From Eledone cirrhosa (Eukaryota): a stretch of DNA of 64,000 nt. The notes below the pieces were generated by a model that did not search any database, had not been told where the DNA came from, and saw only the letters and a list, made by a program, of their open reading frames with translations. The stretch covers positions 30,566,001 through 30,630,000 of the forward strand of contig OZ024756.1 in the NCBI GenBank assembly GCA_964016885.1. The letters are read 5' to 3'. This document shows, in pieces, positions 7,016-7,310 of the stretch. The translations under genes and the position numbers were made by a program. Numbering within the stretch: position 1 is the first letter of the stretch; each line of letters begins with the position of its first letter.

Positions 7016-7310
7016 CAAGTAAGAATATTTTCGAAACAGCGAGTGGATTTGAAATTATTAGAAATGTTAGCTATCGCCGTATTTTGACTAAAGAAATTAA
7101 AGAAATTATTTAGCCTGATAGTGGGGTTAAGAACCCTCGGAGAAATGGTAGCACAGTGGTCCGGATAACCAAAGATGTGGGTTCGACTCCCATGTACGTC
7201 AATACTCATCTTTTTCCATTTCTCCGAGGGTTCTTAACCCCACTATCAGGCTAAATGATTTCTTTAATTTCTTTAGTCAAAATACGGCGATAGCTTACAT
7301 TTCTAATAAT
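7016..7310. mobile_element. Family F foldback element with tRNA-type A/B boxes in the spacer
   Basis: Arms 7054-7148 and 7216-7310, tail 7016-7053. Spacer has TAGCACAGTGG (7149-7159) and GGTTCGACTCC (7180-7190). TA flanks. Confidence 0.75.

Follow-up and report, generated by a model that had tools for sequence, protein, structure and literature searches.

Penelope-like elements (PLEs) are described as forming inverted 5'-truncated copies, with a tail of 30-40 bp and a preference for (TA)n, and Octopus Naiad and Hydra families are listed among those that target (TA)n (Craig et al. 2021, PMC8557442). In the PLE system studied by Frangieh et al. (2024, PMC11167929), reverse transcription has two internal start sites whose interval is the tail, and the PLE protein cuts and extends AT-rich DNA on both of its strands. 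How inverted halves are joined, and how PLEs are transcribed and restrained, is still treated as open in these two papers (PMC11167929, PMC8557442). Moreover, passengers that depend on PLEs have already been proposed, one of them with a Pol III promoter (PMC7761336, PMC6765202, PMC4209133, bioRxiv 10.64898/2026.07.22.740005), and both Penelope and tRNA-SINE families are reported from octopus, the accessible text of those reports describing no hybrid of the two (PMC13282606, PMC8967140).

The foldback considered here, F, is a fragment of 295 nt in a 64-kb window (the whole stretch of DNA that was analysed). It resembles the (TA)n-targeting Naiad and Hydra PLEs in its inverted truncated copy, its tail and its (TA)n target, and shares with Naiads the lack of a canonical hammerhead, whereas, unlike these elements, it is ORF-less (PMC8557442). 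The Poseidon element PAc is likewise comparable, as two reverse-transcription start sites bound its tail and its AT-rich target is cut on both strands; conversely, PAc has a hammerhead, and the available text describes no tRNA-like unit in it (PMC11167929). The nearest concept to F is found in the TRIMp3 elements Helenus, Ajax and Cassandra, in which a non-functional tRNA-like sequence with conserved boxes also lies in a terminal repeat; these elements have direct LTRs, a PBS and a PPT, duplications of 4-5 bp, and a promoter proposed to serve the template RNA (Kojima 2024, PMC10886601), whereas the repeats of F are inverted and its one tRNA-like unit appears to point away from the 3' end of the element. 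Non-LTR retrozymes and Schistosoma Sm-alpha are short, non-autonomous and proposed to ride on PLEs (PMC7761336, PMC6765202, bioRxiv 10.64898/2026.07.22.740005), a description that would suit F, but they consist of tandem direct repeats with an active hammerhead, and F has neither (PMC7761336, PMC6765202). Lastly, as in F, the tRNA of tRNA-derived SINEs (SINE2) is degenerate but conserved in its B box and T arm, whereas the unit of F is internal, apparently antisense to its own half, followed by a T5 run after 10 nt, and body-less.

Architecture of the insertion

The window is AT-rich eukaryotic DNA, with 34% of it masked as simple repeat and with many SINE-like heads and short (TA)n foldbacks; its SINEs give it the look of octopus DNA. 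The two arms of F match at 91 of 93 bases and enclose the 67-nt spacer that an earlier sequence-only reading of the locus had described, and the fragment folds at -171.8 kcal/mol, an energy that none of 100 shuffles reached (Table 1). Because TATATATCAA stands on both flanks and few TA runs are followed by CAA (4 of the 537 run ends of the 64-kb window), the insert as a whole is probably bracketed by a target duplication, with a tail of 37 nt. No second copy of the tail, the arm or the spacer was found in the 64-kb window, in agreement with the earlier remark that a single copy is visible; the best non-self match had E=0.15.

Table 1. Coordinates of the features of foldback F and of its flanks within the window
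Feature	Position	Strand	Remarks
Left target, (TA)n ending in CAA	7003-7018	.	10-nt match to 7324-7333
Left copy of the probable target-site duplication	7009-7018		Within the left target
PLE-type tail	7019-7055	-	37 nt (40 nt if 7016-7018 are counted as element); left half only
Left arm	7056-7148	-	93 bp; the inverted copy's putative pLTR/3' end, reading from the centre outward (polarity taken from the sister families by analogy)
Degenerate tRNA-like unit	7131-7201	+	Across the left arm/spacer junction; predicted antisense to the left half; cmscan and stem pairing
In-register A box	7138-7148	+	7/9 consensus positions; 31 nt ahead of the B box
A-like motif of the sequence-only reading	7149-7159	+	TAGCACAGTGG; 9/9; out of register; 20 nt ahead of the B box
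Spacer	7149-7215	-	67 nt; extra reach of the left half beyond the right half
B box	7180-7190	+	GGTTCGACTCC; exact; inside the fully paired T arm (7177-7193)
Match to the 12-nt motif of two other foldback families' tails	7194-7206	+	One insertion; same polarity
T5 run	7211-7215	+	TTTTT; candidate terminator for Pol III, located exactly where both halves meet
Right arm	7216-7308	+	93 bp; putative 5'-truncated sense copy ending at (TA)n; tail-less
Right target, (TA)n ending in CAA	7309-7333	.	Right duplication copy at 7324-7333

The tRNA-like unit and its promoter boxes

The A-box-like and B-box motifs previously placed in the spacer are both present, and among 5000 dinucleotide shuffles of F none contained the exact pair, 22 contained a relaxed pair and one contained the exact B box; this is also the sole exact 11-nt B box in the window. 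The claim that the spacer holds the promoter was not confirmed by the alignment to the tRNA model of Rfam, since the in-register A box and tRNA positions 1-18 lie in the left arm. Specifically, positions 9-63 of the model match 7139-7193, across the arm/spacer junction, with 18.8 bits (E=0.056 when 93 nt were compared with the 4227 families of Rfam), and, when the left arm is left out, positions 19-71 match 7149-7201 as a 5'-truncated alignment with 22.2 bits (E=0.0067), both scores being below the Rfam tRNA gathering score of 29. The first spacer base corresponds to position 19, in the D-loop, and positions 1-18 are supplied by the inner end of the left arm. Because the model runs through the junction and the spacer starts at position 19, the structural A box is, by register, formed by the 11 nt with which the left arm ends, and the A-like motif noticed earlier corresponds to the 3' strand of the D stem and the 5' strand of the anticodon stem. 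An A-B gap of N30-35 is described for such promoters (PMC8969392), within which the 31 nt of the in-register box fall and the 20 nt of the other, already noted as short in the sequence-only reading, do not. A match to the A register as good as that of the arm end, also ending in GG, is found in 0.35% of the 80,542 unmasked 11-mers. In the other B-box contexts examined, an A-like motif 32 nt ahead of B scores 7/9 in three of six and a 9/9 A box at 44 nt is present in four of six; because three of the six score 7/9, a second A-like motif is, as far as these contexts show, common in tRNA-derived heads. The out-of-register motif of F, with 9/9, beats the in-register box, with 7/9, and might be used by TFIIIC. 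With either A box, the described offset of 10-15 nt between the 5' end and the Pol III promoter (PMC8969392) would place the start of a transcript inside the left arm.

Pairing in the tRNA-like unit is retained at 3 of 7 positions in the acceptor stem, 2 of 4 in the D stem, 4 of 5 in the anticodon stem and 5 of 5 in the T stem, and position 33 is a C. ARAGORN did not list the unit at its default threshold, nor, at -ps75, among the 43 of 83 matches listed, which span the position of F; at the gathering level, Rfam gave no match across the 64-kb window. Because of its broken stems, the C at position 33, the score below the Rfam gathering level and the missing ARAGORN call, the unit is judged from these predictions not to be a functional tRNA. 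The best-ranked matches, to phage tRNA-Trp at E=2, did not fix its isotype. The T5 run, which had been pointed out as a possible Pol III stop ahead of the right arm, starts 10 nt past the end of the unit, and a terminator normally trails a tRNA gene in the same way. The Rfam matches of F to miRNAs were discarded, since the long hairpin alone accounts for them.

Polarity and assignment to Penelope-like elements

A unique tail beyond one arm is present in all ten foldbacks examined (79-95 nt in nine, 40 nt in F), (TA)n lies within 13 nt beyond the tail-less arm in nine of the ten, and copies within one family are truncated at different inner points. The unpaired centres of the sister foldbacks do not exceed about 22 nt, which makes the 67-nt spacer of F atypical. 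A minimal hammerhead descriptor matched six places of the masked window, each belonging to one of two sister families, and the four in complete foldbacks (3397-, 3537+, 26918- and 27011+) all read centre-outward; Rfam called no hammerhead in the single sister family tested. In F itself no hammerhead core word occurs on either strand, and its arm has no detectable relation to the sister arms, the best comparison being equalled in 92 of 2000 shuffles; a decayed hammerhead suggested by eye in this arm was discarded, as no comparison beat that figure. The arm plus tail compared with the copy at 30194 gave 2 of 300 shuffles, as one among 128 comparisons. By analogy with the sister families, the halves of F would read centre-outward, and the left half (spacer, arm and tail) would be a minus-strand copy; because this polarity makes the left half a minus-strand copy, the tRNA-like unit would be antisense to it.

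Membership of F in the PLEs is probable, on the strength of an architecture that comes with neither ORF nor hammerhead. The described features found in F are an inverted 5'-truncated copy beside a sense copy (with polarity taken from the sisters), a tail of 37-40 nt at one end, compared with 30-40 bp in the literature, and a (TA)n target on both sides; the hammerhead of the pLTR is absent, as it is also in Naiad/Chlamys. The Penelope-like order of (TA)n, arm and tail that had been reported is present, except that it is the left arm, not the right one, that bears the tail (7016/7019-7055). No RT or GIY-YIG domain was found by Pfam in 53 frames elsewhere in the window (52 of 111 plus one longer frame). 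The supplement of PMC8557442, queried with short motifs, gave no match to F: neither "tRNA", nor the 13-mer around its B box on either strand, nor six generic B-box 10-mers were found, although wrapped FASTA lines may hide some, and the main text of that paper mentions tRNA once, for selenocysteine.

A further link between F and other foldbacks might be provided by the 12-nt motif in its spacer. There are 13 matches in the window including that of F, with 0.47 expected per window and 7e-4 per 67 nt; the link is a lead only, a weak one that was spotted after the fact. The tRNA-like stretch compared with seven family B tails was equalled in 12-100 of 2000 shuffles, and compared with one family G copy in 3 of 2000, in one of three scorings. 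Homology to these tails is not established, as about 12 other places score higher among 3178 windows, and one family B tail, compared with the tRNA model, gave no match. In its own right, the motif forms a hairpin and is common to the tails of at least two dissimilar foldback families and to two further loci (10307-10318, 20072, 32360, 42435, 50568, 45032(-), 3747(-), 59083, 26465(-), 56972 and 46433(-)), and it is possibly a conserved cis signal near the start sites of reverse transcription.

Origin of the insertion

The reading that we favour, and consider rather likely, is that F joins, head to head within (TA)n, two 5'-truncated copies of one Penelope-like 3' end, the antisense tRNA-like unit being already present in the parent. 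A single and fairly recent insertion by PLE machinery into a (TA)n microsatellite would have produced it. The enzyme would cut both target strands, as suggested by PMC11167929 and by the layout, and reverse transcription would start at two nearby sites of one RNA, namely at the end of the tail for the left half and 37-40 nt inward for the right half. Both cDNAs would stop early and then join head to head, the left one being 67 nt longer. The tRNA-like unit would already have lain in antisense in the pLTR/3' region of the parent, as a tRNA-type gene that had been captured and had decayed and that included an A box, a B box and the T5 terminator. Under this polarity the unit points away from the 3' end and could not be the promoter of the element's own RNA; at most, its transcription would yield an antisense RNA of about 85 nt that is complementary to the RNA of the element. 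Against the favoured reading stand the single copy of F, the junction exactly after T5, which has to be taken as chance or as joining favoured by the homopolymer, and the poorer score of the in-register A box (7/9) compared with the out-of-register one (9/9). So do the missing hammerhead and the unrelated arm of F, the lack of an Rfam hammerhead in the sister family tested, the atypical length of the spacer, and the tRNA score and ARAGORN result given above.

A more ambitious form of the same idea, which we regard as unlikely, is a PLE family whose pLTR keeps a Pol III gene of tRNA type, antisense and with a terminator of its own; the RNA of about 85 nt from this gene would pair just upstream of the start sites of reverse transcription and have a job in the cycle, as an antisense brake or as a bridging template. 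In the bridging version, one cDNA would jump onto the U-tail of the antisense RNA, and the head-to-head cDNAs would become complementary and anneal; the junction would fall exactly at T5 because of that jump. The 12-nt hairpin motif of two other families would then be a remnant of the module. A jump onto a U-tail is also invoked by a somewhat less probable origin, a one-off chimera in which the right cDNA, having reached the 5' end of a short PLE RNA, moved to a foreign Pol III RNA, the tRNA-like RNA being copied back to the D-loop and joined to the left cDNA via a 5-nt microhomology. The jump would account for both the T5 exactly at the junction and the long spacer; moreover, both arms end at one base, and three copies of the sister family A start at a nearly identical base, showing that fixed 5' ends exist. 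The order tRNA, T5, arm is that of chimeras between Pol III RNAs and retroelements, and it is counted here in favour of the chimera. However, the end of the arm would have to fit the D-arm by luck or microhomology, as 0.26-0.35% of 11-mers do before any selection for microhomology, and the segment, with its C at 33 and broken stems, shows more decay than a real tRNA copied recently should have, while the arms are 98% alike. In addition, no SINE head in the window matches the segment (best E=0.15), so that the donor is not seen there, and the segment carries a motif common to the tails of other foldbacks.

The sequence-only reading had proposed a tRNA-headed SINE, mobilised by PLE machinery, with a Pol III transcript running through the right arm. 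The tRNA derivation of the segment holds, and the exact A-like and B motifs do face the right arm (0 of 5000 shuffles), with an A box that is a perfect 9/9 and better than the in-register one; non-autonomous PLE passengers exist, and Schistosoma has an SINE-like element that combines Pol III and a hammerhead. A head transcribed into the right arm is, conversely, not supported: its 5' quarter lies in the left arm, a T5 precedes the right arm and, under sister polarity, it reads antisense. The head would lack tRNA positions 1-18 unless they were taken from the left arm, and its A-B gap is 20 nt rather than 30-35, a distance reached only with the in-register box of the left arm (31 nt, 7/9). The tRNA-like unit lies about 115 nt inside the left end, where a SINE has its promoter 10-15 nt from the 5' end; the path to the 3' end is predicted to be interrupted by termination at T5, and the tail is on the opposite half. 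As a whole the SINE reading is improbable and mostly wrong, an antisense tRNA-type module in a PLE-type end being likelier. An equally poor prospect is the opposite polarity of F, with a plus-strand RNA of tail, arm, tRNA and U5 and the tRNA-like part at its 3' end, where it could drive a tandem neighbour as internal promoter or serve as a recognition tag for the reverse transcriptase, by the logic of Helenus or Sm-alpha. F has no hammerhead to set the direction, its plus-strand unit ends cleanly at T5, and Helenus LTRs and Schistosoma elements carry internal Pol III promoters; yet the RNA's 3' end would lie centrally and not, as in the oriented sisters, at the (TA)n target, the terminator would stop read-through to the next unit, and direct repeats are absent. 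Hardest to credit is a DNA foldback, such as a MITE, that has terminal repeats of 93 bp and captured a tRNA pseudogene: it suits long, near-perfect inverted repeats beside TA, but it does not account for a tail on one side only, the arms are bracketed by the probable duplication together with the tail and not alone (the left copy of the duplication is outside the 37-nt tail), the sister families have variably truncated halves, and the tRNA overlaps one of the repeats.

Significance

No report of a tRNA-type Pol III unit in a PLE pLTR was found in the literature covered, to which subscription papers, Repbase notes, supplements and repeat libraries largely did not belong, and an antisense tRNA-type module in a PLE end may be undescribed. 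If a conserved antisense Pol III unit is confirmed, it would provide a testable handle on the joining, transcription and restraint of PLEs, and it would extend to them the idea, known from Cassandra and Helenus, of small-RNA genes in terminal repeats. If F is a one-off relic, it would carry little weight beyond a warning against misannotation as a SINE or a tRNA pseudogene. The value of the antisense-module reading depends on other copies of F.

Other repeats in the window

Several foldback families accompany F. One has seven copies (3669-3793, 10261-10462, 20027-20258, 32314-32524, 42389-42598, 44894-45077 and 50526-50632) inserted in (TA)n; their tail end (about 80 nt) and their arm end are constant, and the point of inner truncation varies. 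Because this family gave no hammerhead match, it appears Naiad-like by architecture. Two families with hammerhead-like arms (1357-1514, 3211-3629, 19797-19997 and 26847-27082) hold the six descriptor matches, none of them called by Rfam, and three copies of one of these families start at a nearly identical inner base. The single-copy foldbacks 5267-5553 and 22311-22631 have tails of 82-95 nt, which exceed the 30-40 bp of the literature. A nested or rearranged (TA)n family (26368-26500, 30194-30285, 56849-57167, 58884-59200 and 60752-60889) contains a hammerhead-core-like word and, in antisense at the far end of the tail, a B-box-like word.

Non-LTR remnants lie at 27671-28465, 45431-45799 and 52817-53413. 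The first has a zf-RVT match (E=4.6e-6), the sole match in the 53-frame Pfam scan, and related copies are found at 28770 and 45441; the frame 52817-53413 has no Pfam match and is taken by us to resemble the C-terminus of a restriction-like endonuclease. A nearby SINE was considered as the source of the tRNA segment of F and discarded, as none in the window matches. A SINE-like repeat with a B-box-like word is arranged in tandem, head to tail, every 195-240 nt or so (13510-14022, 49069-49620, 52175-52983 and 55035-55612). Lastly, tRNA-headed SINE-like copies are located at 7654-7800, 37425-37569, 59692-59837, 32640-32760 and 47600-47720, in four of which a 9/9 A box precedes B by 44 nt, and the SINE-like copy at 7663-7720 reaches 28.5 bits on the tRNA model.
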